DNA from: Candidatus Tectimicrobiota bacterium
GTDB lineage: Bacteria > JACPUC01
NCBI GenBank assembly: GCA_016192455.1
Contig: JACPUC010000010.1
Coordinates: forward strand, 90,856-154,855
DNA: 64,000 bases
Direction of reading: 5' to 3'
The notes below the pieces were generated by a model, which ran no database searches, was not told the DNA's origin, and saw nothing but the letters and a program-made list of their open reading frames with translations. Made by a program: the position numbers and the translations under genes. Of this stretch, positions 3,399 through 27,194 are shown piece by piece. Numbering within the stretch: position 1 is the stretch's first letter; each line of letters starts with the position of its first letter.

Positions 3399-3963
3399 CA
3401 GGTTACCCTCGCTGAGCCGCACGAGCTGTGGGTTGACACGTCTTCTTCGGAAATGGGTTTGGGGGAGGAATGAACCTACACCTTCCGCCCGCGTTGCTTG
3501 GCGGTCGATTCCGGGCGGCGAGAGCAGACTTGCGCCCAGCCTGGCGGTTTCCGCGTGGTTCGCCGCGGCACGAACGCGGTTTCTGAAACCGCGACACCGA
3601 AGGAACCACGCCGCGCGCGGCATGCGCGCCGCACCCTGGGTGCCTACCTGATTTACTGGAGTATGTCAAGAGAGGGAGGGCGTGAGGGGAAGAGCCTCAG
3701 CCGGGCAGGCGCCGAAGACGTCAGAGCCTTGCAAATGCCGTGCGGGGCCTCCCCTTCCGTGCCAACGCGGCGTCGCGCCGTAAGGTTGGAAGGGAGCACC
3801 CGCAGCGCGATACAGGGACGCGCCGAAGCGTGGGAGGCGCTCCCATTTCGTCCACACAACGTTCGAGCCATTGTTGAACTTGAGGGGGGAGGCTGGGAAT
3901 AGATCTCGTCCCTTACTGGTTAGGTCAAGGAGAGTCCTTCATCAAGCGAGGCAAGAGTTACAC

Positions 3964-7415: not shown

Positions 7416-7443
7416 GTAGGGGCGGTTCGCGAACCGCCCCTAC
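7416..7443. repeat. GTAG-type REP palindrome, copy 1
   Basis: Perfect 28-bp palindrome GTAGGGGCGGTTCGCGAACCGCCCCTAC, which recurs at 19680 and 20050. Confidence 0.85.
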
Positions 7444-7794: not shown

Positions 7795-9438
7795 TCAGTG
7801 TTCGGTAACCTCCTCCGGGGTGGGCCGGGCCCGCAGCGAGTAGTACTCTTTCAGCCAGTCGTCGCGGTCAATCGCCATCACCGGCTTATACGTGATATCG
7901 GACAGCCCGTATTCATCCCAGCGCTTCTTGGTGGCCTCGTCGATATCGTTCTCAAGCACCTGGATGGGTGGGTAGACGCTGTAGTTCCACTGCTCCCAGC
8001 GCTGGAAGTTCCAGTTGCGCGTCGCGTCCACCAGCACGCGACACCACTTCCCGGAACCGAATTTCGTAATGTCGCGCTCCTCGAGGCGCGTGCTCGGGTC
8101 CAGAGGCGCGCCGTGGCAGCCGGGGCGGAACTCGATGTCGCCGACTTCGGCGTTCACCCGCCAGGCATAGGCCCATTCCATTTCTTCCGGGTTGTGAATA
8201 TCGATGTCTTCCTCGACGACGGTAACGTTCTTGAACATCCATTGGGCGGCGTTCGAGGCCCACAGGGCGGCGGCCGCCTGTTTGGCCTGACCGCGGTAGG
8301 TCTTGTGAATTTGCACCGCGATATTGGCCGCGAAGTTCAGGTGCGAGGTGAAGACGTCGGTCACGCCCGGCACGCCGGCCGTCTCCAGGATGTTCCAGGC
8401 CATGGCGGAAAAGGCGATAGAGGCGAAGGTGCCGGTTTCGTTCGGCCAGCCTGGACGGAATCCTTCCAGGGAGCCCTCGAAGATGGGATTGTTGCGGTGG
8501 CTGATGCAGTCGACGCGGATGGTCGGTTTCAGCGAGGCGGCGCCGCCGTAGTACCCGGTGTACTCGCCGAAAGGCCCTTCGAGGCGGAGGTCTTTTTGGT
8601 CGATGGAGACGATGCCTTCAAGGACGTACTCCGCGTGCGCCGGAACGAGCAGGTCCGAGGTTTCACACTTCACGAGTTCGATGGGGCGCCCGCGCATGGC
8701 GCTCGCCACCTCGTACTCGTTGGTCCCCGCCGGCAAGGGGGTGCCGGCGCAGAAGCGCAGGATCGGGTCAAAGCCGATGACGACGGCCGCCGGCATCGGG
8801 TAGCGGCCAATCTTGTACTTCGAGTAATGAATGCCCCAGTGTTGCGCCGCGATCAGCAGGCAGGAGATGAGATTCCTTTCGTTGGGAACGATCATGCCGC
8901 GGTACGTCCCAACGTTCAGGATGCCGGTTTCCGGGTCCTTCGTCACGACCGAGCACGAGGTGTTGATGTAGCGGCCGCCGTCCCACTTGTGCCACCTCGG
9001 CACGGGAAGGGCGTCCAGGTCGATGTCGCGCCCCCGAATGATGTTCTCTTTCACCGGCCCCCCGCCAACCTGAACGGGGGCGAGACGTTTCTTGAACCCG
9101 TCGCGGCACGCCTTGATCATCTCTTTGTTCGTCGTCTCAGGAGAAAGCCCCAGAAGCGTGGCGATGCGCCGGTACTTCGCCAGCGACCCAGAGACCACCT
9201 TGCTGCCCAGCGGGTTCTTCTGGTACCCCTTGATGTTCTCGAACAGCAGGGCGGGACCCTGCGCGGCCATGACCTTGCGCACGATGGTTCCCAGTTCCTC
9301 CTCTGGACTCACCTCCGCCTTGATGCGCCGCAGCTCACCTTCCTTCTCCAAGAGCTGGATCCAGCTCCGGAGATCCGTAATCTCAGATGCCGAATCCGAG
9401 CCGCGCCAACTTCTTAATTCCGCTTCTTTCAGTGCCAT
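7795..9438 (-). CDS. UbiD family (de)carboxylase #2
   Basis: DLRSWIQLLEKEGELRRI, DGGRYINT, NVGTYR, EGPFGEYTGY and VVEEDIDI; GGAGG RBS. Confidence 0.92.
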   Translation of the reverse strand: MALKEAELRSWRGSDSASEITDLRSWIQLLEKEGELRRIKAEVSPEEELGTIVRKVMAAQGPALLFENIKGYQKNPLGSKVVSGSLAKYRRIATLLGLSPETTNKEMIKACRDGFKKRLAPVQVGGGPVKENIIRGRDIDLDALPVPRWHKWDGGRYINTSCSVVTKDPETGILNVGTYRGMIVPNERNLISCLLIAAQHWGIHYSKYKIGRYPMPAAVVIGFDPILRFCAGTPLPAGTNEYEVASAMRGRPIELVKCETSDLLVPAHAEYVLEGIVSIDQKDLRLEGPFGEYTGYYGGAASLKPTIRVDCISHRNNPIFEGSLEGFRPGWPNETGTFASIAFSAMAWNILETAGVPGVTDVFTSHLNFAANIAVQIHKTYRGQAKQAAAALWASNAAQWMFKNVTVVEEDIDIHNPEEMEWAYAWRVNAEVGDIEFRPGCHGAPLDPSTRLEERDITKFGSGKWCRVLVDATRNWNFQRWEQWNYSVYPPIQVLENDIDEATKKRWDEYGLSDITYKPVMAIDRDDWLKEYYSLRARPTPEEVTEH

Positions 9439-9749
9439 CACTACCTCCTCCCGTGGATTTCCCCCTTGCCGACCTGCGGCGGCTGTCCGCCCTTCCTTCG
9501 CAGCCCGCAGGCGAAGCTGGCCTTCTCACCAGACCTCGCATCTCTCAGCCCCTGGCGGGATGCCAGAGGGCATCCTGCGCTCGTAACCCAGCCCGCCGTT
9601 ACCGCAACAGCCCCTTCTTCCAGCTTCGCTCATCGAGGCCGCGTGATTAGTCCTGCCCTCGAGCAGCGGGGGAATCTCCGGTCATCGGCGGTCGCCCGAT
9701 GATTCGACCCCATGCGAGGAGTGATAAAAGGAACGGCTCGCAGCGCGGA

Positions 9750-12223: not shown

Positions 12224-12898
12224 ATGGAACTCTTCCCGCTGACGAACAACTGTGAACAAGAGCAATCAGGCAAACGGCCTCTCGAAGCACTCTATGCAGG
12301 TGATCAGGACATCAATGAGATTACCGGCCGATTTGGAACCATCCTCATAGATCCGCCCTGGAGATTCCTGAATAGAACGGGCAAGATGGCCCCAGAACAT
12401 AAGAGGCTTCGCCGCTACAGAACCATGAGCTTTGCAGAGATCGCTGCCTTACCAATTGCAAAATTCGCCTGCGAGAAAAGCCACCTATACCTCTGGTGTC
12501 CGAATGCCTTGCTTCTCGAAGGCTTGACTATTATGAAATCGTGGGGCTTCGAGTACAAGACGAATATCGTTTGGTATAAAGTCCGCAAGGATGGTGGCCC
12601 CGATGGCCGCGGTGTGGGATTCTACTTTAGAAATGTCACTGAGCTTGTTCTATTCGGTGTCAAGGGCACTCTGCGAACCCTGAAGCCAGGTAGAAGTCAA
12701 GTTAATATTATCGTTTGTCGCAAGAGGGAACACTCACGCAAGCCAGAGAAAATATACGATGTCATCCAGAGATGCAGCCCGGGCCCTTACCTTGAGCTCT
12801 TCGCAAGGGAGAAAGTAACCGGTTGGACGCAGTGGGGTGACGAATTGGCGACCTACGAGCGCACGAAACCGAACCACAAAGGGTACAGTTGGTCATGA
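12224..12898 (+). CDS. MT-A70 family adenine methyltransferase
   Basis: ILIDPPW, HLYLW, WGFEYKTNIVWYK, FRNVTE, REHSRKP and LELFAR. Confidence 0.92.
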   Translation: MELFPLTNNCEQEQSGKRPLEALYAGDQDINEITGRFGTILIDPPWRFLNRTGKMAPEHKRLRRYRTMSFAEIAALPIAKFACEKSHLYLWCPNALLLEGLTIMKSWGFEYKTNIVWYKVRKDGGPDGRGVGFYFRNVTELVLFGVKGTLRTLKPGRSQVNIIVCRKREHSRKPEKIYDVIQRCSPGPYLELFAREKVTGWTQWGDELATYERTKPNHKGYSWS

Positions 12899-12919
12899 AG
12901 CTGGATCATTCAACACCAT

Positions 12920-13549
12920 CTAACGGTTTATTCGCTGATGAACTTTTTCGTAAACCTGACGTACCCGTTGGCGATCAGAAAGATGATAATCATCGCTCTC
13001 TAAAGGCATGTCAACCAGGATGATATTAACTGGAACTGAAGGAAAATTTTTCGACAAGCGTTCTAAATCGTAAACCAACTGTTCCCCATAGGATACCCCT
13101 GAAGACATCTGCCGCTGAAGAAAATGACATGGCACAATCTCCACTCCAAGACGAATTGTACCCTTATTGTAAAAGTATTGAAACTTAGCCAGATCATAAA
13201 ACATGAAAGCATATTTCCCAAACTGTACTTCGACGAGCACCGGTTCCTTATAGAAATCACACTGCTTATATGCCCCGAAGATCTTGTGCGGGTAGTTGGG
13301 GATTTCAATATCATAAAAGTCTTTGAGCTCACCCCAACCATAGTGATAGAATAGATTCTTGAATAGCTGATTTATTTCTTTTGGAGAGTAAAGTTGCTTA
13401 TCTAATTTCGTCTTCTCCTTACTCTTTTTGTTGCGACCGGGATTCTCTACTTGCAGTATTATATTCTTCAGCTGCTCATATACTTCAGGAAACCTGACAA
13501 GGAGAATTTCCTCGCCACCAAGATGAGAATAGGTATAAACAATATCCAC
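12920..13549 (-). CDS. BglII/BstYI family type II restriction endonuclease
   Basis: YSHLGG N-terminus; CDFYKEPVLVEVQFGKYAFMFYDL has the D..ExQ active site of BglII-type enzymes; low GC. Confidence 0.82.
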   Translation of the reverse strand: MDIVYTYSHLGGEEILLVRFPEVYEQLKNIILQVENPGRNKKSKEKTKLDKQLYSPKEINQLFKNLFYHYGWGELKDFYDIEIPNYPHKIFGAYKQCDFYKEPVLVEVQFGKYAFMFYDLAKFQYFYNKGTIRLGVEIVPCHFLQRQMSSGVSYGEQLVYDLERLSKNFPSVPVNIILVDMPLESDDYHLSDRQRVRQVYEKVHQRINR

Positions 13550-13579
13550 AGTAATGAGTTATCCTTTCTAGGATACTAG

Positions 13580-14500
13580 TTAGGACTGTTGCTTAAAGGG
13601 GTTTCTTGTCAAAGAGGTATCCTGAGGAGGTTCGTAGATCTCCCGCCCCATGGGTCGGACCTGCAAGAGCCCCTCGGCCGCCAAGCCGGCGCGCGCAAGT
13701 GCAATTTCTAGATACTTGGCATCGAGCTCGGCCCCCGCCACGCGACGCCCATGTCGCACCGCAGCCACTGCGGTTGAGCCAACCCCCATGAACGGATCGA
13801 AAACTAGATTATCTTTTTCCGTGAGACCCAAGACTAACCTTTCAACCAGTTCAACCGGGAACTGACAGGGGTGCTCAGTCTTTTCAATATGATTGTGTTT
13901 CACATTTGGAATAACCCACACGTCTCCTGGATTCTTGCCGAGAGGATTGCAGGAGTACTCTCCGGCCTTCGGTCCCTTAAAATATCGCTTCCCCGGATAC
14001 TTCTGGGGCACACGCAGAGCGTCGAGGTTGAAAATGTAGTCAGCGGATTTCGTGAACCAGAGAATGACCTCGTACCGTCCGGAAAATCGTCTCGAACAAT
14101 GCAGTCCATGCTCAAAGTGCCAGACAATACGATTCCTCATCTTCAAACCATGCCGTTGAAATGCTGGATAAAGAAGCACATCTAAAGGTATGATCGAACC
14201 GCGTTCTACGTAGTTCCCAACTTGCCAGCAGATGCTACCGCGTTCATTGAGAATTCTGACGCATTCAGTAATCACGCCAGCCTGTTGTGCTACGTAGAGA
14301 TCAATATCGAGTTTATTCTCATATACTTTGCCCAAGTTATACGGTGGCGAGGTTACAATGAGTTGTGCACTATTCTCAGGGATCGTGGCAAGAAGGGCGA
14401 GGCAGTCGCCGTGAAACAGGGTTACACGGTTCTCAGCTCGGTACTCCGACATAACGCCGAAAGGGATACCCAATGAGAGGTGAAGCTGTCGTCCTGTCAC
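13580..14500 (-). CDS. Beta-class N4-cytosine/N6-adenine DNA methyltransferase
   Basis: GDCL, VTSPPYN, HPCQFP and DPFMGVGST, with motif IV before motif I. An alternative start lies at 14452. Confidence 0.92.
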   Translation of the reverse strand: MTGRQLHLSLGIPFGVMSEYRAENRVTLFHGDCLALLATIPENSAQLIVTSPPYNLGKVYENKLDIDLYVAQQAGVITECVRILNERGSICWQVGNYVERGSIIPLDVLLYPAFQRHGLKMRNRIVWHFEHGLHCSRRFSGRYEVILWFTKSADYIFNLDALRVPQKYPGKRYFKGPKAGEYSCNPLGKNPGDVWVIPNVKHNHIEKTEHPCQFPVELVERLVLGLTEKDNLVFDPFMGVGSTAVAAVRHGRRVAGAELDAKYLEIALARAGLAAEGLLQVRPMGREIYEPPQDTSLTRNPFKQQS

Positions 14501-16144: not shown

Positions 16145-16843
16145 TCAAGTGGCTGCTTTCTCGGGGCCTGCTGGCTTTGGCTTCCCCGCCGCTTCGCCGC
16201 CCAGCCCCTTGCAGCGCGCGTCAGCATGGGGACCCGTGGGCGCCATCGTGAAGACGGATTCAACCGACGTGTAGTCGAAGTATCCCAGCCGGGCGAGGGG
16301 GCGGATTTTCAGGACGTCTACGCGTCCGTCATCGGTCAAGGCGTCGTCGCGGATGTGCACCCCGATGACCTTTCCCACCACGACGTACACGACATTCTCC
16401 ACCGTGTGGCCGGGGAGGACCAGCGACGTGGAGAAGAGGCATTCGAGATGGACCGGCGAGGCGGCGAGGCGCGGTGGCTTGACGAGCCGCGAGGGGATGG
16501 TCTCCAGCCCGGCGAGCACGGTCTCATCGACCTCGGGATCGACGAGCTGCGAGGAGACGTTGACCGCCTCGCGCAACTCCCAGGTCGCCATGTTGCAGAC
16601 GAACTCGCCGGTTTCAACGGCGTTCACCACGCTGTCCTTGCGGCTGCCGTCCGGACGCGCCTGCGCGGAGAACATCACGTAGGGCGGGTCATAGCCAAGG
16701 TTGTTGAACTGGCTGTAGGGCGCCAGGTTAACCACGCCGCCGCGGCTCAGCGTCGTGATCCAGCCGATGGGGCGCGGGATGACGCAGGATTTGTAGGGGT
16801 TGTAGGGCAGTCCGTGATCGTTCTTCTCAGTCTCGTAGAACAT
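16145..16843 (-). CDS. Flavin reductase family (DIM6/NTAB) protein
   Basis: PRPIGWITT, NLAPYS, KDSVVN..ETGEFVCN and PLARLG. Confidence 0.9.
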   Translation of the reverse strand: MFYETEKNDHGLPYNPYKSCVIPRPIGWITTLSRGGVVNLAPYSQFNNLGYDPPYVMFSAQARPDGSRKDSVVNAVETGEFVCNMATWELREAVNVSSQLVDPEVDETVLAGLETIPSRLVKPPRLAASPVHLECLFSTSLVLPGHTVENVVYVVVGKVIGVHIRDDALTDDGRVDVLKIRPLARLGYFDYTSVESVFTMAPTGPHADARCKGLGGEAAGKPKPAGPEKAAT

Positions 16844-16979: not shown

Positions 16980-17768
16980 TTACGGCGCCCACTCGACGCC
17001 GCAGGTGAGGTTGATGTGCTGGGCGGTGACGCTCTTGGCGGCGTCGGAGGCCAGCCACAGGGCGCACTCGGCAACCTCGCGCGGATCGGTGACGTGGTGC
17101 AGGGGGGACTGATCGATGATCCATTCGCGCACCGCCTCGGGCGTCTTCTTCTGCACTCGGGCGCGGTTGCGCACCACGCTCTCGAAGCGGTCGCCCGCCA
17201 CCGGCCCGGGGCAGATGGCGTTGACGCGGATGCCGAAGGCCGCCAGCTCCACGCCAAGGCTGCGCGCGATGGCGACGTCCGCCGCCTTCGAGGTGGCGTA
17301 GGGGAGTCGGTTGGGGTAGGCCCGCAGGCCCCCGCCCAGCGACGACAGGTTGATGATGCAGCCGCGGCTCTCCTTCAGCATCGGCACGGCGGCGCGGCAG
17401 CAGAGGAAGACCCCGCGCACGTTGACGTTCATCACCTGGTCCCACTGCTCGTCGGTGATCTCCGTCACCGGCGCGGTGGGCCCCTCGATGCCGGAGTTGT
17501 TGACCAGCACGTCGAGGCGGCCAAGCTCCTGCCGGGTGCGCTCGAAGAGGTGCCGCACGGCGCTGCTGTCGCAGAGGTCGATGGGCACGCAGAGCGCCTT
17601 GCCGCCGAAGCCGCGGATGATCGCCGCCGTCTCCTCCAGCGCCGGTACCGTGCGCGCGGCGAGCACCGAGGTGGCGCCGGCGCGCGCGAACTCGACGGCG
17701 ATGGCCCGCCCGATCCCCTTGCCCCCGCCCGTCACCACCGCAACCTTGCCCGCAAAATCGAAGTTCAT
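16980..17768 (-). CDS. SDR family oxidoreductase
   Basis: TGGGKGIG, LVNNSG, YATSK and VNAICPG. Confidence 0.92.
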   Translation of the reverse strand: MNFDFAGKVAVVTGGGKGIGRAIAVEFARAGATSVLAARTVPALEETAAIIRGFGGKALCVPIDLCDSSAVRHLFERTRQELGRLDVLVNNSGIEGPTAPVTEITDEQWDQVMNVNVRGVFLCCRAAVPMLKESRGCIINLSSLGGGLRAYPNRLPYATSKAADVAIARSLGVELAAFGIRVNAICPGPVAGDRFESVVRNRARVQKKTPEAVREWIIDQSPLHHVTDPREVAECALWLASDAAKSVTAQHINLTCGVEWAP

Positions 17769-18184
17769 GATCACGCCCCCTGCTGCCGTACGATCTGTCC
17801 CAACCTGTAGGCAGCCCCCATTGGGAGCCTCTCCGTTGACGCGAAAGGCTCTTCAATCAGGGCCGCCGCCGGCATGCTGACGCCGGCGTTCTTCCTCGCC
17901 CGGCATCGCCAGGATGTTTCAGGCGACGGTTTCCCGGACAAGCCCGATTGTAGCAGAGAGGCGGAGCTTGACTCAACGTCACCTGATACACCGACCCCGC
18001 GCCGCCTCCTTCCGCACTGCCTCCGGCAGCGGGCGCGCGAGATGCCCCACGCCGCGGAGCGCGCGCAGCATGCACAGCCAGAGCGGGCGGCTGCCGGTTG
18101 ACAGAGTGGCCAGGGATTGCTACGAATCGCCAGAAGCGGGGTGAGGGCGCCGCCGGCGAATGCAGCGCGGGGAGAGATGACAGC

Positions 18185-19606
18185 ATGGCTTCTGACGGGA
18201 ATGTCGAGTTCAGTCTGCGCGGTTACGTGATGGACCTCGCCCGCGAGCTCCCCGGGGCCTGCGAACGTCTGCCTGCGCCGGTCGACCGGCGGCGCCAGCC
18301 GGAGGGGCTCGCCGCCGAGCTTGCCGGGCAGGACCGCTGGCCGGTGCTCTGGGGAGAGCTGCCGGGGAGCAGCCCGTGCGGCGTCGCGGCGAACCTCTTT
18401 GCGGACCGCGCCCGCATGGCGGCCTGGTTTGGTGCGCCGCCGGAGCGGCTCAGCGCGGCGCTCCTCGGTCGTCTGGCGGGAGCCGGGCGCGCCGGGATGC
18501 GGCGCGAGGCGGGGCAGGCGCCGGTGCGGCAGGTGATCCTGCACGGGGAAGAGGTTGATCTCACGGCGCTGGCGATCCCCCGGCACGGCGGCGCGGGCGG
18601 CGCCGTGATCACCGGCGGGCTGCTCATCACCTGCGACCCCGGCGACGGCAAGGAGCGCATCTGCCAGCAGCGCGCCCTGATCACCTCGCCGACCAGCCTC
18701 GCCCTCCCCCTCGACCACCACAGCCAGCTCAGCCGCGCCGCCGATGCCGCCCGCCTGCGCGGCGAGCGCCTGCGCGCCGTCCTCTGGATCGGCCACCACC
18801 CCGCCCTGGTGCTGGCGGCGGCCTGCCTGGGGGAGCGGGCTGAGGTTTGGGAGCGTCTCGGCGCGGCGATCAACCGCGACCTGGCCGTCACCCCGTCGCT
18901 GAGCTTCGGCAAGGCGCTGTGCGTCCCCGCCGAGGCGGAGCTGGCGCTGGAGGGGGAGATCGACCCGAGCGCCCGCGAGGAGCACGCCGGCTTCCCCGCC
19001 GGCAACGGCTGCACGGCCGGCCCCACGCCGGCCCTGCGGATGGAGGTGCGCTGCCTGAGCCGGCGGGCGGAAGCCTGGTGGTGCGACGTAGTGCCGGAGC
19101 AGCTTGATGCCTACCAGCTCTCGGGCGTGCCCCTCGAGGTCGCCCTCCTCGACGAGGTGGGACGCCGGGCGCCGTCGCTGCGCAACGTCCACGTGCCGCC
19201 CACCGCCGGCGGCGCCCTGCACGCCTATCTGCAACTCAAGGAGCCCCGCAAGGGAGAGGCCCGCGAGGCCATCCTCACCGCCTTGCCGGTGGACGCGCGC
19301 CTGAAACACGTCTTCGTCGTCGATGACGACGTGAACATCTTCGACGACCGCGAGGTGCTGTGGGCGCTGGCCACGCGCTCGCAGTGGGAGCGCGATGTCC
19401 TCATCATGCCAGGGCTGCGCGGCTCGCGCCTCGACCCGCTGGCCGAGGGGGGCGTGGGGGTGAAGGGGGGTTTCGACTGCACCCGCCCGGCAGGCGAGAG
19501 CTACAGCGAGCGCAACGCCGTGTCACCGTCGGTCTACGCCGAGGTGCGCATCGAGGATTACCTCGACGCGGCGCACCTGGCGCGCATCCCCGTCGAGCGG
19601 CAGTAG
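18185..19606 (+). CDS. UbiD-like protein #3 with degenerate active site (possible non-catalytic subunit)
   Basis: The UbiD C-terminal domain is intact (VVDDDVNIFDDREVLWALATR, KGGFDCT), but EGPFGE is replaced by HAGFPA. Confidence 0.82.
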   Translation: MASDGNVEFSLRGYVMDLARELPGACERLPAPVDRRRQPEGLAAELAGQDRWPVLWGELPGSSPCGVAANLFADRARMAAWFGAPPERLSAALLGRLAGAGRAGMRREAGQAPVRQVILHGEEVDLTALAIPRHGGAGGAVITGGLLITCDPGDGKERICQQRALITSPTSLALPLDHHSQLSRAADAARLRGERLRAVLWIGHHPALVLAAACLGERAEVWERLGAAINRDLAVTPSLSFGKALCVPAEAELALEGEIDPSAREEHAGFPAGNGCTAGPTPALRMEVRCLSRRAEAWWCDVVPEQLDAYQLSGVPLEVALLDEVGRRAPSLRNVHVPPTAGGALHAYLQLKEPRKGEAREAILTALPVDARLKHVFVVDDDVNIFDDREVLWALATRSQWERDVLIMPGLRGSRLDPLAEGGVGVKGGFDCTRPAGESYSERNAVSPSVYAEVRIEDYLDAAHLARIPVERQ

Positions 19607-19679
19607 ATCATGTGCTGTTTCTTCAATCAGATCGCAGAGAGGCGCGAGGGAGCCTCGCCCCCTCGCGCACCCTTCATCG

Positions 19680-19707
19680 GTAGGGGCGGTTCGCGAACCG
19701 CCCCTAC
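19680..19707. repeat. GTAG-type REP palindrome, copy 2
   Basis: Identical to 7416-7443. Confidence 0.85.
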
Positions 19708-19836
19708 GGCTCGCGGGGAGTGGGGGGCAAGGGTCTCCTCCAAAAGATTCCCCTCTCGCCTGGCACGAAGAAGGCGTCGAATTTAGGTTGGAACTTGTGC
19801 GAGGTGACGCCAGGCGATGCCGCAGGAGAACCGCGC

Positions 19837-19995
19837 ATGCCCATGGTGAAGGTGTACTGGCTGACCTGCCCGAAATGCGGCTGGCGCTACTACGTGGGAG
19901 AGTCGCTGCTGCGCATCAAGGACTTCCCCACCGTCTGCCCGAAGTGCAAGCATGAGTACCTGCCGGAGCAGTCGAGCACCGGCATCGAGGGGTAG
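19837..19995 (+). CDS. 52-aa zinc-ribbon protein
   Basis: AGGAG RBS; MPMVKVYWLTCPKCGWRYY...TVCPKCKHEY has two CxxC pairs; host-like codon usage. Confidence 0.75.
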   Translation: MPMVKVYWLTCPKCGWRYYVGESLLRIKDFPTVCPKCKHEYLPEQSSTGIEG

Positions 19996-20049
19996 CGGGC
20001 AGGCTGCCATTTTTTTTTGGGGGACCATTGCTCCCCCACACCCCCATCC

Positions 20050-20077
20050 GTAGGGGCGGTTCGCGAACCGCCCTTAC
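20050..20077. repeat. GTAG-type REP palindrome, copy 3
   Basis: One mismatch to copies 1 and 2. Confidence 0.8.
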
Positions 20078-20150
20078 AAAGCGGGGTGCGCGAGGGGGCA
20101 CTGCTCCCTCGCAGCTCTCCTGCTTAGAGCGCGCGGTTCGAGGAGCGGCG

Positions 20151-21497
20151 ATGCAGGTAGACCTCCAGAGCTTTCTGCGGGAGTACGAGAAGGAGCACCC
20201 GGAGGACGTGGTGCGGATCGATAAGGAGATCGGCATCGAGGAGGAGGTCTCCACCCTCTGCGTCAAGCTCGAGGAGCAGTGCCGCTACCCGATCATCTAC
20301 TGCACCAACGTCGTCAACCGCATGGGGCGCCGCTACGAGATGCCGCTCGTCTTCAACCTGCTGGCCAGCCGCAGCCGCTGCGCGCGCGCCCTGGGCTCGG
20401 ACGTGCGCAGCGTCGGGCGGGACTTCTACAACCTGTCGCGGCTGCAGACGATCCCGCCGGTGGTGGTGCGGCGCGAGGAGGCCTTGGTGAAGCAGCGGGT
20501 GCTGCGCGGCGAGGCCATCGACCTGTTCTCGCTGCCGGCCCTGGTGCACCATCGCCAGGACCCCGGCCAGTACTTCACCGCCGGTTTCCTCACCACCATC
20601 GATCCCGACAGCGGCGTCGACAACTGCTCGCTGCAGCGCGGCTGGATCGTCGGGCCGCGCACCATGCGCTGCCTGCTCAGCCCCTACTCGCACAACCGCT
20701 ACAACTACGACAAGCTGGAGGCGCGCGGCGAGGACACGCGCATGGCCTACTGGATCGGCCATCACCCCCTGGTGTGCCTGGGTGCGCAGGTGCGCCTCGG
20801 CTATCCGGAGAGCCACTACGGCGCCATCGGCGGCATCCTGCGCCAGCCGCTGCGGCTCGTCCCCTCGGAGACCCTCGGCAATGACTTCCTCGTCCCCGCC
20901 GACGCGGAGGTCGTCATCGAGGGGCGGCTCATCGCCAACAAGCGCGTGCCGGAGGGGCCGTTCGGCGAGTACACCGGTTACACCGGCCCGCAGGTGCCGA
21001 GCCTCGAGTTGCAGGTCTCCTGCATGACACACCGCCAGGGCGCCCACTGGCACGATATCTTTACTGGCCACGCCGACACGCTGATTATGGGCTCGTTCGC
21101 CCTCGAAGGAGTGACGTACGAGGCCGTGAAGCAGCGCGTGCCGTCGCTGAAGAACGTCTACCTGCCGCTCTCCGGCGCCAGCCGCTTCAACATCTACCTG
21201 CAGCTCGAGGGGGCGCGGCGCGGCGATGCCCGCGAGGCGATCATGACGGCGCTGCCGCTCGACTACCGCCACAAGCACGTCTTCGTCTTCGATGAGGACA
21301 TTGACATCTTCGACGAGCGGCAGGTGATGTGGGCCCTGGCGACGCGCAGCCGCCTGGACCGCGATATGATGATCTTTCCGAAGGTGCGCGGCTCCGTCCT
21401 TGACCCGAGCATCGTCGATGAGCTGACAACCAAGGGCGGCATCGACTGCACCATCCCGCCCGGCGACACGCGGCCGCCGCGCTACAGCGTCCGCTAG
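20151..21497 (+). CDS. UbiD family (de)carboxylase #4
   Basis: GAGGAG RBS; DLQSFL, EGPFGEYTGY and FDEDIDIFDERQVMWALATR. Confidence 0.92.
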   Translation: MQVDLQSFLREYEKEHPEDVVRIDKEIGIEEEVSTLCVKLEEQCRYPIIYCTNVVNRMGRRYEMPLVFNLLASRSRCARALGSDVRSVGRDFYNLSRLQTIPPVVVRREEALVKQRVLRGEAIDLFSLPALVHHRQDPGQYFTAGFLTTIDPDSGVDNCSLQRGWIVGPRTMRCLLSPYSHNRYNYDKLEARGEDTRMAYWIGHHPLVCLGAQVRLGYPESHYGAIGGILRQPLRLVPSETLGNDFLVPADAEVVIEGRLIANKRVPEGPFGEYTGYTGPQVPSLELQVSCMTHRQGAHWHDIFTGHADTLIMGSFALEGVTYEAVKQRVPSLKNVYLPLSGASRFNIYLQLEGARRGDAREAIMTALPLDYRHKHVFVFDEDIDIFDERQVMWALATRSRLDRDMMIFPKVRGSVLDPSIVDELTTKGGIDCTIPPGDTRPPRYSVR

Positions 21498-21564
21498 CGC
21501 CGGCGGGGGGCCCTGGAGGGGCCGATCCTCAGCACGCGGCCAGCCGGGCGGCGAAGGAGGCGAC

Positions 21565-22128
21565 GTGGAACACGAATTTCGGATGAAGCGCGGCCATCGT
21601 CTGCTCCTCGTGGCTCTCATGGTGGTGGTGGCGGCCTGCGTGGTCTACTTCGTGGCGCTCGCCCTGAGGCTGCTGGACTCCGCCACCCTCCTCGATCTGC
21701 CGCGCGACTCGGTGCAGGTCCTCTACGGCGCCTTCTTCCTCTATGCCATCCCGGTGCTCTTCCTGGTCCTCTACGTGCTCAGTCTGATCACCTTGCGTCT
21801 TACGTACAACGAGGAAGGGCTGGAGCTGCGCAGCCTCTTCCGCCGTTTCCGGGCCTCCTGGGCGGAGGTGCGCCACGCCTTCGTCATCAACCGCAACCTC
21901 CACGTGGCCACGCGGCAGGGGTCCTTCAAGCTGCCCCTCGGCATGTTCCGCGGCGACGCGGAGAGCCTGCGCCCCTTCATCCCCGGCGAGCGCTGGCTGG
22001 AAGGCGAGGCGGCGCGGCGTCTGCGCCTGCGCAAGCTCCTGCCCTACCTCCTGGGCTGCATTCTCCTGGCGCTGCTCCTCCTCATCTTCCTGCAGCGCTA
22101 CCTCAACAGCCTGCTCAAGGCGATGTAA
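21565..22128 (+). CDS. Membrane protein with a bacterial PH-like domain
   Basis: Three hydrophobic helices flanking LTYNEEGLELRSLFRRFRASWAEV; AGGAGG RBS. Confidence 0.6.
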   Translation: MEHEFRMKRGHRLLLVALMVVVAACVVYFVALALRLLDSATLLDLPRDSVQVLYGAFFLYAIPVLFLVLYVLSLITLRLTYNEEGLELRSLFRRFRASWAEVRHAFVINRNLHVATRQGSFKLPLGMFRGDAESLRPFIPGERWLEGEAARRLRLRKLLPYLLGCILLALLLLIFLQRYLNSLLKAM

Positions 22129-22218: not shown

Positions 22219-23205
22219 TTACCGCGGTTTGATCTTCGTCGAGGTGTAGAGCGCCGCGGCGTTCTTGTGGTAGATGCGCTCGCGCTCCTCGGCGCCGCAC
22301 GCGAGCCCTTCAATCACCTTCAAGGTGATCGGGTACTGCGCGTAAGGGTAATCCGAGCCGTAGAGCAGCCGGTCGGCGCCGAACATGCGGTAGCACATGT
22401 CCATCGCCTCCTGGTGGTAGGTGACGGTATCCAGGTAGAAGTTCTTGAACTGCTCGCTCACCGGCCCCTTGATCATCGACTTGCTGCCGGGCACCGCGGC
22501 GATGTTGTCGATGCGCCCCAAGACGTAGGGGATGATGCTGCCGATGTGCGGCAGGACGATCTTGATGCCCGGGAACTCCTCGAAGATGCCGGCGTGGATG
22601 ATGCGCAGCGCCGCAAGCGTGGTGTCGAAGAGGAAACCGACGCAGGCCATGAGGTGGAACTCCTGCATGCCGGCCATGTTGAGCGGGCGGGTGGGGTGCA
22701 GGAAGATGGGCAGGTCGTACTCGTGCATGCGGGCGAAGAAGGGGCGCAGTTCGGCATGGTCGACGGTGCGGCCGTTGATGTTGGCGAAGAGCTGCGCGCC
22801 GCGGAAGCCGAGCTGCCGGATGCAGCGGTCGAGCTCCTTCAGGGAGCTGTCCATGTCGCCGAAGCCGAGGGTGGCGTAGCCCCAGTAGTGCGCGGGGTCC
22901 TGCTTGATGATCGCGGCCAGGGCATCGTGGCCATAGGCGGCCATGTCCTCCGCCTCCTGGCCCCCCAGCAGCTCCGGCCCCGGCATGCTGATGCTGAGGA
23001 TGGCGACGTCCACGCCCCGCGCCAGCATCTCCTTGGTCTTCTTCTCCATGTCGATGAGCTGCGGGGTGAACGGGATGATCAGGCCGTCCGCCAGCTTCGA
23101 CCACCACATGCCGTTGCGGTGCTCGAACGTGGGGAGGCTGGTGCGCTTTGCCAACCGCGCCGCGAACTCCGCGGCCTGAAAGTGGTTCTGCACGTCAATT
23201 CGCAT
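22219..23205 (-). CDS. Amidohydrolase_2 (ACMSD/LigW-like) protein
   Basis: IDVQNH, PIFLHP, IVLPHIG, FYLDT and LLYGSDYP. Confidence 0.88.
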   Translation of the reverse strand: MRIDVQNHFQAAEFAARLAKRTSLPTFEHRNGMWWSKLADGLIIPFTPQLIDMEKKTKEMLARGVDVAILSISMPGPELLGGQEAEDMAAYGHDALAAIIKQDPAHYWGYATLGFGDMDSSLKELDRCIRQLGFRGAQLFANINGRTVDHAELRPFFARMHEYDLPIFLHPTRPLNMAGMQEFHLMACVGFLFDTTLAALRIIHAGIFEEFPGIKIVLPHIGSIIPYVLGRIDNIAAVPGSKSMIKGPVSEQFKNFYLDTVTYHQEAMDMCYRMFGADRLLYGSDYPYAQYPITLKVIEGLACGAEERERIYHKNAAALYTSTKIKPR

Positions 23206-23487
23206 GCTGCGCTCCTTCTCGCTGGCGCTGTCGCAGGTTTCTGCGGTGGGGTCCCCCGGGTGGTCCACGATGCCGCCCCAGCGGCGGCCTGATCGGCGGA
23301 GAGATGACTACCAGAGAAGCCCGGGGGACGCAAGGCGATGGCGGCGCGCGGCAGGCGCTCCGCGCCGCCAGGGCGCGACCAGGACGGACCGTTGACGGAG
23401 GCTCGAACTATCGCTAGATAGAGAGCTCATGCGCCGCCGCTCTCCCTGGAGCGTCGCTCACGGTCCCATGTCGTCAGGAGTGCCGCC

Positions 23488-24261
23488 GTGCCCTCGCCCA
23501 CCCCGCGCCGACGCGCCCTCCCCGCCCGCCTCGAGGAGCTCTTCACGATTGCGCTGCGGCTCATCTCGGAGAAGGGCTTCCGCGGCGTCACCATGCGCGA
23601 CCTCGCCCAGAGCATGGGGATCAAGGAACCGAGCCTCTACAACTACATCAGCGAGAAGGATGAGCTGCTGGTGCGCCTGCTGCGGCCCCACATCCGCCGG
23701 CTCTGCGTCTCGGCGCAAGCGATCGTCGACTCCGAGCAGCCTGGGCCGGCGAAGTTGCGCGCCTTCATCCGCAACCATATGGAGCAGTACCGCACGCATC
23801 ACTTACCGCTGACCATCCTTTTTCAAGAGAAGGTCTATCTGCTCAACTCGAAGCATCGCGCCTGGTACCGCACCTCGTCGCGGCGCTACGAGGAAATCTT
23901 GCAGCGCCTGCTGCGCGACGGCATGGCGCGGGGGGAGTTTGTGGAGGATGACCCGCGCCTCTGCGCCTACCTGGTGCTGGGGGCCTGCAACTCCAGCCTG
24001 AGCTGGTACCGCAGCGAAGGCTCCCTTTCGCTCGAGCGCATGATCACGCGCTTCACCGAGACCCTGGTGCGGGGGCTGCTGCCTGCCACGGGGATGCCGG
24101 AGGCGGCGCATCCCCCGGCGGCTTCTTCGGACCCTGCCGGAACGTCGCCGCGGAGGAGGGCGGCGCGGCGGCGCGGAACCACCGCCAGCGGCGCACCGGC
24201 AAGGCGCCGACGACCCGGGCGCGCTGCCGGCGGGCAAGGTGATGACGCAGGGGCCGCCTGA
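23488..24261 (+). CDS. TetR/AcrR family regulator
   Basis: ALRLISEKGFRGVTMRDLAQSMGIKEPSLYNY HTH and a KstR2-like C-terminus (WYRSEG). Confidence 0.9.
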   Translation: MPSPTPRRRALPARLEELFTIALRLISEKGFRGVTMRDLAQSMGIKEPSLYNYISEKDELLVRLLRPHIRRLCVSAQAIVDSEQPGPAKLRAFIRNHMEQYRTHHLPLTILFQEKVYLLNSKHRAWYRTSSRRYEEILQRLLRDGMARGEFVEDDPRLCAYLVLGACNSSLSWYRSEGSLSLERMITRFTETLVRGLLPATGMPEAAHPPAASSDPAGTSPRRRAARRRGTTASGAPARRRRPGRAAGGQGDDAGAA

Positions 24262-24496
24262 AGGCGCGGCGCCGGCTGGGCAGGGGTTGCGTCCCGGTGG
24301 GTCCGGCGGCTCGCCCCGCCGCCGGGCGCGCTGGAGCCGGGCCGTCCCGACCTCGTCCCGCTTTGACGAAAGGCGCGCGCCGTGCTATGAGCTGGAGAGA
24401 ACTATCGCCGTTTCACCATCCACACGTACGCTGCGGCGCCATCGAGCGTGGCCACGCACGGCGCCGAACAACGCTCACGTGACGAGGAGGGAGGAG

Positions 24497-25669
24497 ATGA
24501 AACTTCTATCCCGCGGTTTCGTTGGCATGCTGCTGCTCGGGTTCATTCTCAGTCTGGCGGGAAGTTCGCCGGTTCAGGCGCAGGAGGGCGAGGCGGTCCT
24601 TGGCCTCCTGCTGCCGACCACCGGCTTCGTCGCTTACTACGGCAAGCAGATGCGTCTCTCGGCGGATATGGCCGTGGAGGACATCAACAAGGCCGGCGGC
24701 ATCAACGGCAAGAAGATTCGCCTCGTCTTCTACGACACCGGCGGCAAGCCTGAGGAGGCCATCAACTCGACGCGGCGCTTGGCGACCTCCGACAACGTCG
24801 TGGCCATCATGGGGCCGATGACCAGCAGCGAGTGCCGGGTGGCCTATCCGCTGGCGAACCGCCTCGGCATTCCCATCGTCGCTTCGGCCTGCTCGGCCCC
24901 TGGGCTGGGCGCCGCCAACCGCCCGTGGGCCTTCCGCAACACCGTGCTCGAGGCGGACGTGGCCGCCCCGTCTCTCACTTACTGGGCCAAGAAGCACAAC
25001 GTCAAGAGCGTCGTGGTGTTCTACGATAACAAGGACATCGTCAGCAAGTCCTTCGGCCTGGAAGTGATGCCAGCCCTCCTGAAAGATAACGGCATCAAGC
25101 TCGTCGACTCGATCTCGGTGGTGACGGGAGATATGGACTACAGCGCCCAGGTCACCAAAGCCAAGTCGCTGAACGCGGAGGGGCTGGTCCTCTCCGCCCT
25201 GGCGAACGAGTCGGCGGGGATTGCCCGCGAGGCGCGCCGCCAGGGGCTGAAGCAGCCGATGTTCGGCGGCAGCTTCCTGGCCGGGCCGCAGTTCATCTCC
25301 AAGGGCGGCAGCGCGGTGGAAGGCGTGATCATGGGGAGCGGCTTCTGGCAGGATAACCCCGACCCGACCATCGCCGCCTTCGTGAAGCGCTTCAAGGAGC
25401 GCGAACCGAGCAAGGAGCCGCCACACCAGGTGACGGTCTATCAGTACGAAACGATCACCATCATGAAGTATTGTTCCGAGAAGACGGGCGTGCAGTTCAA
25501 GCCTGAAACGCTGAAACAAGACCGCGAGAAAATCCGCGATTGCTGGCAGAACCTGCGCAACCACAAGGTGCTTAGCAGCACCATGTCGATGATCGAAGGC
25601 GACGGCAAACGCCCACCCCTCATCATCGAAGTCAAAGGCGGCACCTTCGAGCTCCTGAAGACGAACTAA
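24497..25669 (+). CDS. LivJ-like ABC substrate-binding protein
   Basis: Signal peptide, then AVEDINKAGGINGKKIRLVFYDT and DYSAQVTK. Confidence 0.9.
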   Translation: MKLLSRGFVGMLLLGFILSLAGSSPVQAQEGEAVLGLLLPTTGFVAYYGKQMRLSADMAVEDINKAGGINGKKIRLVFYDTGGKPEEAINSTRRLATSDNVVAIMGPMTSSECRVAYPLANRLGIPIVASACSAPGLGAANRPWAFRNTVLEADVAAPSLTYWAKKHNVKSVVVFYDNKDIVSKSFGLEVMPALLKDNGIKLVDSISVVTGDMDYSAQVTKAKSLNAEGLVLSALANESAGIAREARRQGLKQPMFGGSFLAGPQFISKGGSAVEGVIMGSGFWQDNPDPTIAAFVKRFKEREPSKEPPHQVTVYQYETITIMKYCSEKTGVQFKPETLKQDREKIRDCWQNLRNHKVLSSTMSMIEGDGKRPPLIIEVKGGTFELLKTN

Positions 25670-25807: not shown

Positions 25808-26037
25808 TTTCGTAAGGAGTAAGTCCGCTAACACCTCGCCTTGATGGTGGGCTGGAAGGAGACGAAGCAACACGAGCAGAGCCCCGGGTGGAGGAAAAAA
25901 CTGGCACAGAATCTTGCACAAACGACCCGCAAAAGACTCCTGGCGGTCGGGCCGAGAAGCCTGCCGCTCCGTCATGGGTGCACTGGAGTTGACCCGTTTT
26001 CGTGGACACGCGATGCTTTGAGCAGGAGGTGTTCACG

Positions 26038-26349
26038 ATGCCCAAGACAAGACGACCGTATCCCCCGGAGTTCCGCCGTCAGATGGTGGAGCTGGTGCGT
26101 GCCGGCCGCAGCCCGGATGAGCTGGCACGTGAGTTCGAGCCCTCCGGCCAGTCCATCCGCAATTGGGTGCGCCAAGCGGCGCGTGAAGCTGGCGCTGGCG
26201 ACGGGTTGAGCGCCGATGAGCGCCAGGAGTTGCGCCGGCTGCGCCGCGAGGTGCGGCAGCTGCGCACGGAACGGGAGATTCTGGCAAAAGCCGCGGCCTG
26301 GTTCGCTCGGGAGACCGACTCGCTCACCTCGAGGCCTTCGAGTTCGTGA
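26038..26349 (+). CDS. IS3 transposase OrfA
   Basis: YPPEFRRQMVELV, an HTH, and a leucine zipper ending EREILAKAAAWFA. Confidence 0.9.
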   Translation: MPKTRRPYPPEFRRQMVELVRAGRSPDELAREFEPSGQSIRNWVRQAAREAGAGDGLSADERQELRRLRREVRQLRTEREILAKAAAWFARETDSLTSRPSSS

Positions 26350-27194
26350 AGGCGCACCAGGTCCGCTATCCGGTGGCCACCATGTGTCGCCTGCTGGGTG
26401 TCTCCGCCAGCGGCTACCATGCGTGGCGGAAACGCCTGCCGTCGGGACGGGCGCGGGCCGATCGGGAGCTGACTATGCAGATTCGGGCCATCCACGCGCG
26501 CTCGCGCGGCACCTACGGGGCGCCACGGGTACAGGCTGAACTCGCCGCCCAGGGCATCCGCGTGGGCCAGAAACGGGTGGCGCGCCTGATGCGGGCCGCG
26601 GGCTTGGCAGGCGTCAGTCGCCGGCGCCGCGTGCGCACGACCACGCGCGGCTCCGCGGCTCACCCCGCCGCCGACCTGGTGGCACGCGACTTCACGGCAG
26701 CGGCCCCCGACCGCCTGTGGGTGGCCGACATCACGTATCTCCCCACCGGCGCGGGATTCCTCTACCTCGCCGTCGTCCTCGACGCCTTCAGCCGCCGCAT
26801 CATCGGCTGGGCCATGGAAGGGCACCGGCGCACCGAGCTCGTCCTCCAGGCGCTCGATATGGCCCTCCGCCAGCGCTGCCCGCGGGGCGTCGTGCATCAT
26901 TCCGACCACGGCACCCAATACACCTCCCTCGCCTTTGGAACGCGCTGCCGAGAGGCCGGCGTGCGCCCCTCCAGGGGACCGGTGGGGGACTGCTACGACA
27001 ACGCCCTGTGCGAGAGCTTCTTTGCCACCCTGGAGTGCGAGCTGCTGGACCGCCACCGCTTCCGCACCCACGGGGAAGCGCGGCGGGCGGTGTTCGAGTT
27101 CATCGAAGGGTGGTACAACACCCATCGTCGCCACTCGTCCCTCGGCCACCTCTCTCCCCTCGACTACGAAAGGACCTACTCACCTGCGGCCTAA
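26346..27194 (+). CDS. IS3 transposase OrfB (DDE)
   Basis: WVADITY, HHSDHGTQY and DNALCESFF; GTGA overlap with orfA. Confidence 0.92.
   Translation: MKAHQVRYPVATMCRLLGVSASGYHAWRKRLPSGRARADRELTMQIRAIHARSRGTYGAPRVQAELAAQGIRVGQKRVARLMRAAGLAGVSRRRRVRTTTRGSAAHPAADLVARDFTAAAPDRLWVADITYLPTGAGFLYLAVVLDAFSRRIIGWAMEGHRRTELVLQALDMALRQRCPRGVVHHSDHGTQYTSLAFGTRCREAGVRPSRGPVGDCYDNALCESFFATLECELLDRHRFRTHGEARRAVFEFIEGWYNTHRRHSSLGHLSPLDYERTYSPAA

Follow-up and report, generated by a model that had tools for sequence, protein, structure and literature searches.

We analyzed a 64,000-nucleotide stretch of DNA (hereafter, the window) from a Candidatus Tectimicrobiota bacterium, corresponding to C9:90856-154855 of genome G000, which alone represents its phylum among the genomes compared. 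Three consecutive genes in this window encode U3 and U4, two paralogs of the UbiD family of decarboxylases that use prenylated flavin mononucleotide (prFMN), and, between them, a 52-residue protein with two CPKC knuckles, hereafter referred to as the ribbon. An earlier note on this DNA had described the tandem arrangement; its coordinates proved exact, and the ribosome-binding site that it assigned to the ribbon gene was confirmed as an AGGAGA box 7 nt before the ATG. U4 and the ribbon would together form an enzyme resembling the decarboxylase VdcCD, with U3 a dead paralog kept as a non-catalytic assembly partner. For this reading as a whole, we consider the balance to be even.

Motif comparison leaves little doubt in our view that U3 is catalytically dead, a prediction made by comparing it with the 59 UbiD paralogs of its own genome, 12 database homologs, and a 36-row alignment of its clade. 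HAGFPAGNGC in U3 aligns to EGPFGEYTGY in U4, such that both glutamates of the EGPFGE motif are lost (to His and Ala), as the earlier note had reported. Further losses had been missed there: D-N, in which the asparagine is a metal ligand position, reads E-R, the S-H of the clade reads E-V, and RHGGAGGAV stands in place of HHxxDPGxY. The catalytic arginine is the sole checked ligand or catalytic residue that U3 retains, and 24 of the 82 columns conserved at ≥90% in the clade alignment are lost. Pfam searches detected UbiD_C (95.4 bits) and UbiD (77.7 bits), but not UbiD_N; the score for the prFMN domain is half that of U4 (160.6 bits), while the UbiD_C scores are equal (95.2 bits for U4). The AlphaFold model of U3 (predicted local distance difference test, pLDDT, 82.1; predicted template modeling score, pTM, 0.84) keeps the UbiD fold, with confidence below 50 at residues 1-5, 135-137, and 271-278, the latter two stretches being the degraded loops. 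The best relative in the PDB is HmfF (6h6v/6h6x; 162.4 and 161.7 bits), to which the model aligns with template modeling scores of 0.80/0.84. U3 lacks the residues of an active enzyme and thus belongs to the UbiD family by descent, not by function.

U4, in contrast, appears to be an intact prFMN-type decarboxylase, and the motif comparison supports the earlier view that it looks active. N158, R163, E268, and E273 are present, and every catalytic motif checked is kept. The roles assigned to the asparagine ligand, the catalytic arginine, and the EGPFGE glutamates follow PMC8379154 and established knowledge of the UbiD family. All three Pfam domains scored above their cut-offs in U4 (UbiD_N, 38.1 bits), and the score against TIGR00148 was slightly below the cut-off (242.6 versus 244.85 bits). 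Its clade carries Ser-His at a pair of positions that is acidic (Asp/Glu-Glu or similar) in most UbiD paralogs of this genome. The best PDB matches were again the HmfF structures (6h6x/6h6v; 237.6 and 234.5 bits), and the substrate is probably an aromatic or heteroaromatic carboxylate. The 4.46-Mb genome (88% complete; 59 UbiD-family genes) contains a single match to a UbiX-sized flavoprotein (PF02441, 146.6 bits, C28:55401-55889, 225-aa frame), a candidate flavin prenyltransferase for the supply of prFMN.

The two paralogs also differ at their C termini. U4 ends ~25 residues short, a property unique to it among the 36 clade rows and the 59 own-genome paralogs; beyond its end column, clade rows extend by at least 18 residues (median 25) and own-genome paralogs by at least 11 (median 24). 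No frameshifted remnant of this tail was seen downstream in three frames, and a contig from a related population (sequencing run X5, described below) shows no indel across 20953-21506, which covers the end of U4. U3, by contrast, retains the full tail, aligned to the end of HmfF. PMC8379154 distinguishes the C-terminal helix of UbiD enzymes as a structural element in its own right and assigns the hexameric core to the C domains.

We then examined the ribbon. Its knuckles comprise C11-x2-C14 and C34-x2-C37; all four cysteines are invariant in the ribbon alignment, and the pattern CxxC-x18/19-CxxC occurs in 62/62 distinct relatives. Family matches were only generic (MJ0042-type zinc finger, 26 bits; Cys_rich_KTR under its cut-off), as were Foldseek matches of the structure model (pLDDT 72.8; MCM and ribosomal protein ribbons). 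The earlier designation of the ribbon as VdcD/BsdD-type does not hold at the family level: a ten-ribbon profile searched against all PDB chains at E values up to 10 retrieved 51 sequences, none of them from 7ae4, 7ae5, or 7ae7, the structures containing VdcD, and no VdcD model was among the NCBIfam matches of the ribbon. Identification as PpcD, PpcC, or VdcD was accordingly rejected for want of a family match.

Gene neighborhoods were more informative. Scanning metagenomes with the ribbon alignment alone yielded 168 relatives, and 80 loci were kept. A UbiD gene was present in 69/80, and in 61/80 it ended within 400 bp upstream of the ribbon gene on the same strand (54/67 of those with >600 bp visible). 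UbiD genes lay directly downstream in 19/80, on both sides (UbiD–ribbon–UbiD) in 12/80, and on neither side in 12/80. The ribbon-linked UbiDs span several clades of the UbiD tree and keep the second glutamate in every row with visible motif columns. The nearest ribbons (51-62% identity; loci L045-L048) lie 4-21 bp behind U4-like UbiDs, of which UP_L045 is 60% identical to U4, and no UbiD follows them; furthermore, 5/29 GTDB loci found with U3 show a UbiD gene followed by a ribbon gene. The genome analyzed here has five ribbon copies, four of which adjoin UbiD genes: those on contigs C15, C7, and C27 lie directly behind a single UbiD, and the window copy lies between U3 and U4. The UbiD–ribbon pair is thus widespread in environmental genomes. 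This synteny and the complex model described next make it very likely that the ribbon acts as a small subunit of UbiD enzymes, as the earlier note had proposed.

To obtain a structural view of this pairing, we modeled U4 (25-row alignment) together with the ribbon (10 rows). The interaction prediction score from aligned errors (ipSAE) was 0.72 (0.74, 0.72, and 0.72 in three runs), and the best of three controls scored 0.00. The partner pLDDT was at least 86, and contacts agreed between runs to at least 78%. The ipSAE mark was reached by 58/80 solved complexes and 2/110 mismatched pairs, counts that apply here only approximately because the model was built from own alignments. The modeled interface on U4 comprises residues 136-139, 265, 267, 269-270, 279-283, 419, and 421 and flanks E268 and E273; residues 136-139 are the QDPG of the HHxxDPGxY loop. 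The corresponding positions in U3 read GAGG, R.E.AG, and AGPTP. In this model, the ribbon would serve U4, not U3.

Two further groups of ribbon-bearing loci and several UbiD lines with altered motifs were observed alongside. In Syntrophales-type metagenome-assembled genomes (L006, L008, L009, L011, and L033), a divergent UbiD (267-281 bits against a profile of the 59 own-genome paralogs) is followed ~2.2 kb on by a canonical UbiD and immediately by a 57-aa ribbon, an arrangement that represents another type of ribbon-bearing multi-UbiD cluster. Ribbon homologs annotated as hypothetical proteins also occur in Paenibacillus genomes (P0040, 76% identity; P0043, 74%; P0044 grouped with them), far from the source lineage, a distribution that may point to horizontal transfer of the module. 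The fifth ribbon copy of the own genome, C13:49131-49286 (+), has no UbiD neighbor and is flanked by genes for a DsbA-like thioredoxin and a major facilitator superfamily (MFS) transporter. Within the ribbon-linked UbiDs, one subgroup replaces Asn with Asp, Arg with Lys, and the first Glu with Gln or Val (own C7:80841-82244 and C27:63057-64607; L081, L091, L101, L102, L108, L124, L067, L094, and L119); conservation of this D..K pattern across many loci is more suggestive of a modified active site than of decay. Two UbiD-like paralogs of this genome, C23:165277-166983 and C15:84070-85626, carry ..LLHS for the Arg motif and DYKHGNF for EGPFGE. Finally, a conserved subfamily within the U3/U4 clade (P0013, P0023, P0025, P0028, and P0030; P0028 represents 34 member sequences) keeps the Asn, has Ser for the Arg, and carries SGHYAGDH for EGPFGE. 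Its loss of the Glu loop differs from that of U3 and is conserved, and its members are not near U3; these proteins may represent another non-canonical or non-catalytic UbiD line.

Next, we turned to the origin of U3. In a tree of 102 UbiDs, from which fragments below 400 aa, open-ended reading frames, and duplicates were excluded, U3 falls in the same 36-row clade as U4 (support 100) and in the same 14-row subclade (support 90), which also contains the C15 paralog and the ribbon-linked UP_L045, UP_L047, and UP_L048. The exact position of U3 is unsure: constraining U3 and U4 to one clade, as a recent tandem duplication would require, costs 14.0 log-likelihood units and is neither supported nor rejected (approximately unbiased test, p = 0.079). 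U3 and U4 share 34% identity over 449 residues (E = 4e-84). The resemblance between their C-terminal domains pointed out previously is real but belongs to the family and marks no special bond between the two: the best match of the U3 C domain is UP_L045, a metagenome UbiD (57%), and U4 ranks 10th of 35. The proportion of synonymous differences (pS) between U3 and U4 is equal across the three domains (0.41-0.49), and there is therefore no sign of recent gene conversion, which this and the rank of U4 rule out as the source of the C-terminal likeness.

Close relatives of U3 were found in metagenome contigs. Contigs from four runs of three other studies (X5, X7, X9, and X6; groundwater and soil metagenomes) cover U3, the ribbon, and U4, mostly at 87-95% nucleotide identity. 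A 1390-base X5 contig spans U3 into the ribbon gene and joins 19606 to 19834, such that 24 letters separate the genes, compared with 227 in the window. The repetitive extragenic palindromic (REP)/miniature inverted-repeat transposable element (MITE)-like element between these genes is absent from X5, and U3 stands at canonical spacing ahead of the ribbon; U3 therefore occupies the ancestral ribbon-partner slot. Protein searches reached less far. A search for shorter relatives of U3 gave two matches (41-43% identity), and the best non-self match among 1.84 billion representatives was 35%, in a library clustered at 50% that would hide orthologs above 50%; U3 orthologs of the related populations were not found at the protein level in the protein collection. 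The 40 genome relatives found share only the domain, and a phylum-level search yielded no genome but the own one. The synteny of the trio with its dead UbiD, for which the earlier note had suggested a search, did not prove to be conserved: U3 was seen only in near-identical populations, and the U3–ribbon–U4 arrangement is confined to a small set of close relatives as a lineage-specific trio.

Conservation along U3 is uneven. In the C domain, U3 holds 43/52 columns conserved at ≥70% (0.83; 0.71-0.87 in eight family members, including U4), whereas in the prFMN domain it holds 48/90 (0.53; 0.79-0.92 in the same eight members; Fisher p = 5e-4 for the two domains). Identity to consensus is 0.52 in the C domain (0.40-0.64 in the eight members) and 0.34 in the prFMN domain (0.57-0.65). 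By these sequence comparisons, the C-terminal oligomerization domain is conserved to the same degree as in active paralogs, with the N-terminal and prFMN domains relaxed. Between populations, the N-terminal and middle part of U3 differs by 11.7% (79/675) and 12.8% (52/407), its C part by 7.0% (33/470) and 7.6% (76/999), and U4 by 6.0-6.6%; these are counts over whole pieces rather than codons, with most differences and 20 further indels falling outside those itemized, which tempers their support for retention. A hand estimate (not a tool result), which assumes equal synonymous rates, about one quarter of sites synonymous, and a ratio of nonsynonymous to synonymous rates (dN/dS) of ~0.1 for U4, puts neutral divergence at ~18% and gives dN/dS of ~0.5 for the N-terminal and middle part of U3 and ~0.15-0.2 for its C part. 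Nine of the 12 listed pieces on U3 are free of gaps, the frame is restored at one −1/+1 pair whose members lie six bases apart, and all five listed indels of the first X5 piece lie upstream of the U3 ATG. The earlier suggestion that U3 is a retained pseudo-enzyme subunit is partly supported by this uneven selection, the subunit role itself being putative.

We propose the following mechanism as the best reading. U4 would act as the catalytic UbiD subunit of a two-component prFMN decarboxylase built like VdcCD, with the ribbon predicted to bind the U4 loops that bear the catalytic glutamate and to hold them in shape. U3 would descend from the ribbon-linked UbiD clade, in the usual UbiD-before-ribbon slot, and could presumably no longer bind metal or prFMN, nor catalyze. 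It may have been kept because its C-terminal oligomerization domain and tail remain functional, its most likely role being that of a non-catalytic protomer that co-assembles with the tail-less U4. Retention of U3 as an assembly partner of U4, as judged from its pattern of conservation, falls slightly short of an even chance in our estimate. A stricter form, in which U3, U4, and the ribbon would constitute an obligate hetero-oligomer that arose by complementary degeneration, neither UbiD being sufficient alone and the ribbon clamping U4 only, is doubtful, although a dead U3 keeping the tail that the live U4 lacks would fit such a heteromer.

Several observations weigh against a kept, assembling U3. 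The terminal branch of U3 is 2.35, whereas that of U4 measures 0.61 and the median is 0.11, and its combined Gly, Ala, Arg, and Pro content (0.416; median 0.317) is the second highest of 59 paralogs; both point to relaxed selection. No relative of U3 above 38% identity was found across 5.8 billion clusters (~15 billion proteins). The loops modeled to contact the ribbon are exactly those degraded in U3, and the gene in the partner slot therefore probably no longer binds the ribbon. In the other UbiD–ribbon–UbiD trios, motif-bearing UbiDs (canonical or of the D..K variant) stand on both sides, and no dead-plus-live pair was seen. The open frame of U3 means little in 72% G+C DNA in which even an antisense frame (17771-19309) runs for 512 codons without a stop. 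The REP element now separating U3 from the ribbon, together with the terminator-like site between the ribbon and U4, leaves co-expression of all three genes unproven, and no RNA run was among the sequencing runs covering the region. As for the partner complex, its score may reflect likeness to, or memory of, the solved VdcCD structure, despite the lack of a VdcD sequence match.

Many of these features would also be expected if U3 were an unused relic heading for loss, the working enzyme being U4 and the ribbon alone after the duplication. An orphan with a very long branch, a composition drifted toward G+C-rich codons, the joint loss of catalytic, metal, and ribbon-contact loops, a REP insertion disrupting the tight UbiD–ribbon spacing that a relative retains, and open frames that come cheaply in such DNA all agree with decay. 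Uniform decay, however, predicts neither a C domain conserved like those of active paralogs when the other domains are not, nor a C part that diverges between populations nearly as little as U4; moreover, the listed indels are rare or compensated within the U3 frame but common just upstream, and U3 is present in populations of three further studies. We therefore regard the relic as unlikely. Another possibility is that U3 has taken up a new job independent of U4, such as ligand binding, regulation, or a complex of its own with the ribbon. Its place in the ribbon-partner slot, 24 nt ahead of the ribbon in the relative, would suit this, as would a terminator-like site behind the ribbon that would make U3 and the ribbon one transcription unit, and the fast change in the N-terminal and prFMN domains could reflect adaptation instead of relaxed selection. 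Yet the loops that hold the ribbon in the U4 model are Gly/Ala-rich, low-confidence loops in U3, its shift in composition resembles mutation pressure, and no diverged U3 orthologs were found in which a conserved new motif could be defined; such a job is improbable.

The remaining alternative concerns the ribbon, which could be a generic zinc-ribbon regulator or nucleic-acid binder found near UbiD genes by chance. Its purely generic family and fold matches, the C13 copy, and the 12 metagenome loci without an adjacent UbiD are what such a protein would give. Same-strand adjacency in 61/80 loci, gaps of a few bases, association with several UbiD clades, and a complex model far above its controls are not, and VdcD (PMC8379154) provides a precedent for a ribbon subunit; we consider coincidence highly improbable.

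The features of the locus and its surroundings are as follows.

Table 1. Features of the U3–ribbon–U4 locus and flanking genes (positions in the window)
Feature	Position	Strand	Basis or remark
Flavin-reductase-like gene, two genes from U3	16145-16843	-	
SDR (short-chain dehydrogenase/reductase) gene	16980-17774	-	
U3, UbiD paralog predicted to be catalytically dead	18185-19606	+	473 aa; Pfam, motif columns, structure model, branch length
Intergenic stretch with one REP/MITE-like palindromic element (~19637-19748)	19607-19833		Repeat search
Ribbon, 52-aa four-Cys zinc-ribbon protein, proposed UbiD small subunit	19837-19995	+	Motif, synteny, complex model
Terminator-like hairpin and nine-T run, right behind the ribbon stop codon	19991-20017	+	Consensus scan
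Second REP/MITE-like element copy, inverted relative to the first	20009-20119		Inverted pairs I1 and I2, pattern matches
U4, predicted intact HmfF-like UbiD decarboxylase	20151-21497	+	448 aa; Pfam, PDB matches, motifs
Small membrane protein gene	21565-22128	+	
Amidohydro_2 gene	22219-23268	-	
TetR gene	23488-24261	+	
Peripla_BP_6 binding protein gene	24239-25669	+	

Around the three genes, the G+C content is 61-72%, and real frames are marked by third-position G+C. A Shine-Dalgarno-like box precedes each of U3, the ribbon, and U4. The terminator-like site rests solely on the consensus scan, which returned 2 sites in the region against 1.2 expected. Inverted copies of the REP/MITE-like element flank the ribbon gene, the upstream one being the copy missing from the X5 population; genome-wide, the 18-base core of the element is present in 124 copies, and the window has a further site at 7419-7440. 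The window also contains two additional UbiD genes, 1914-3623 (-) and 7795-9441 (-). The functional link to the SDR, flavin reductase, amidohydrolase, and TetR genes drawn in the earlier note fails in the closest UbiD–ribbon loci (L045, L047, and L048), where these genes are not conserved and the neighbors are carboxylate or ABC transporters, iron-containing alcohol dehydrogenase (Fe-ADH), aldolase, or metallo-β-lactamase (MBL) genes. Among these three loci, the Peripla_BP_6 binding protein is the only window neighbor to recur (in L047), and the neighbors therefore say little about the substrate. We also considered the flavin-reductase-like gene as a maturase of prFMN of the PhdC type, PhdC being a distant HpaC-like flavin reductase according to PMC13040415; its best PDB matches were 3bpk and 4z85, with no PhdC, and this candidate was set aside as a family-level likeness only. 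Elsewhere in the window, a low-G+C island at 12224-14500 (0.485 versus ~0.65) encodes an MT-A70 methylase, a BglII-like endonuclease, and an N6/N4 DNA methylase and is probably an acquired restriction-modification system. Just behind the binding-protein gene, the open reading frames 26002-26349 and 26346-27194 overlap, and the second has HTH_21 and rve, domains of IS3-type transposases.

Should the obligate hetero-oligomer considered above exist, U3 would represent the first known case of a pseudoenzyme subunit among UbiD proteins, and the ribbon would establish a second family of zinc-ribbon activators beside VdcD. Literature searches, whose reach excluded subscription journals and supplements, found no paper linking UbiD with a pseudoenzyme and, for UbiD combined with "zinc ribbon", only the VdcCD paper. 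A second ribbon family tied to HmfF-like and related UbiDs would show enzymologists which small gene to co-express, HmfF-like enzymes being attractive for the conversion of furan and aromatic acids. A U3 kept as a scaffold would, in turn, provide a case of a homo-oligomeric decarboxylase turning heteromeric.

Multi-UbiD carboxylases offer one comparison. According to PMC12016498 and PMC8379154, phenylphosphate carboxylase combines alpha and beta UbiD-like subunits with small subunits, and the naphthalene carboxylase of culture N47 is a ~750 kDa complex with four UbiD-like genes in a nine-gene cluster. The window locus likewise has UbiD paralogs side by side. The cut-offs for PpcA and PpcB (565 and 469 bits), however, are far above the scores of U4 (110 and 68 bits) and U3 (40 and 45 bits), and no phosphatase-like gamma subunit, as in phenylphosphate carboxylase, was found among the window neighbors. 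In some other trios (L065, L066, and L085), a PpcA-like UbiD lies downstream (L065, the one scored, reaches 396 bits). No report was found of a catalytically dead paralog in the complex of such a carboxylase. HmfF, the 2,5-furandicarboxylate decarboxylase of Pelotomaculum thermopropionicum (6h6v and 6h6x), is the best solved relative of both U3 and U4. It is hexameric according to PMC8379154, and the literature found notes neither a small subunit nor a dead paralog; U4 differs from it in lacking the last ~25 residues that align to the HmfF end.

The closest parallel in organization is VdcCD, a vanillate/4-hydroxybenzoate decarboxylase (PDB 7ae4/7ae5/7ae7), with BsdCD/YclCD in Bacillus. In ShVdcCD, as reported in PMC8379154, VdcD is a zinc ribbon of <10 kDa with two CxxC knuckles and one bound zinc; the enzyme needs it to be active, and it touches the loops that bear the Glu-Arg-Glu (E-R-E) motif. 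The window shares with this system a UbiD gene adjoining a ribbon gene and four invariant and similarly spaced cysteines, and the modeled interface would lie on the same type of loop. It departs from it in that the ribbon has no detectable sequence similarity to VdcD and no Pro-rich tail, and in that U4, unlike VdcC, is HmfF-like (NF041204, 198 bits versus a cut-off of 650). Above all, the window cluster differs from VdcCD in holding a second UbiD gene, one that is predicted to be dead.

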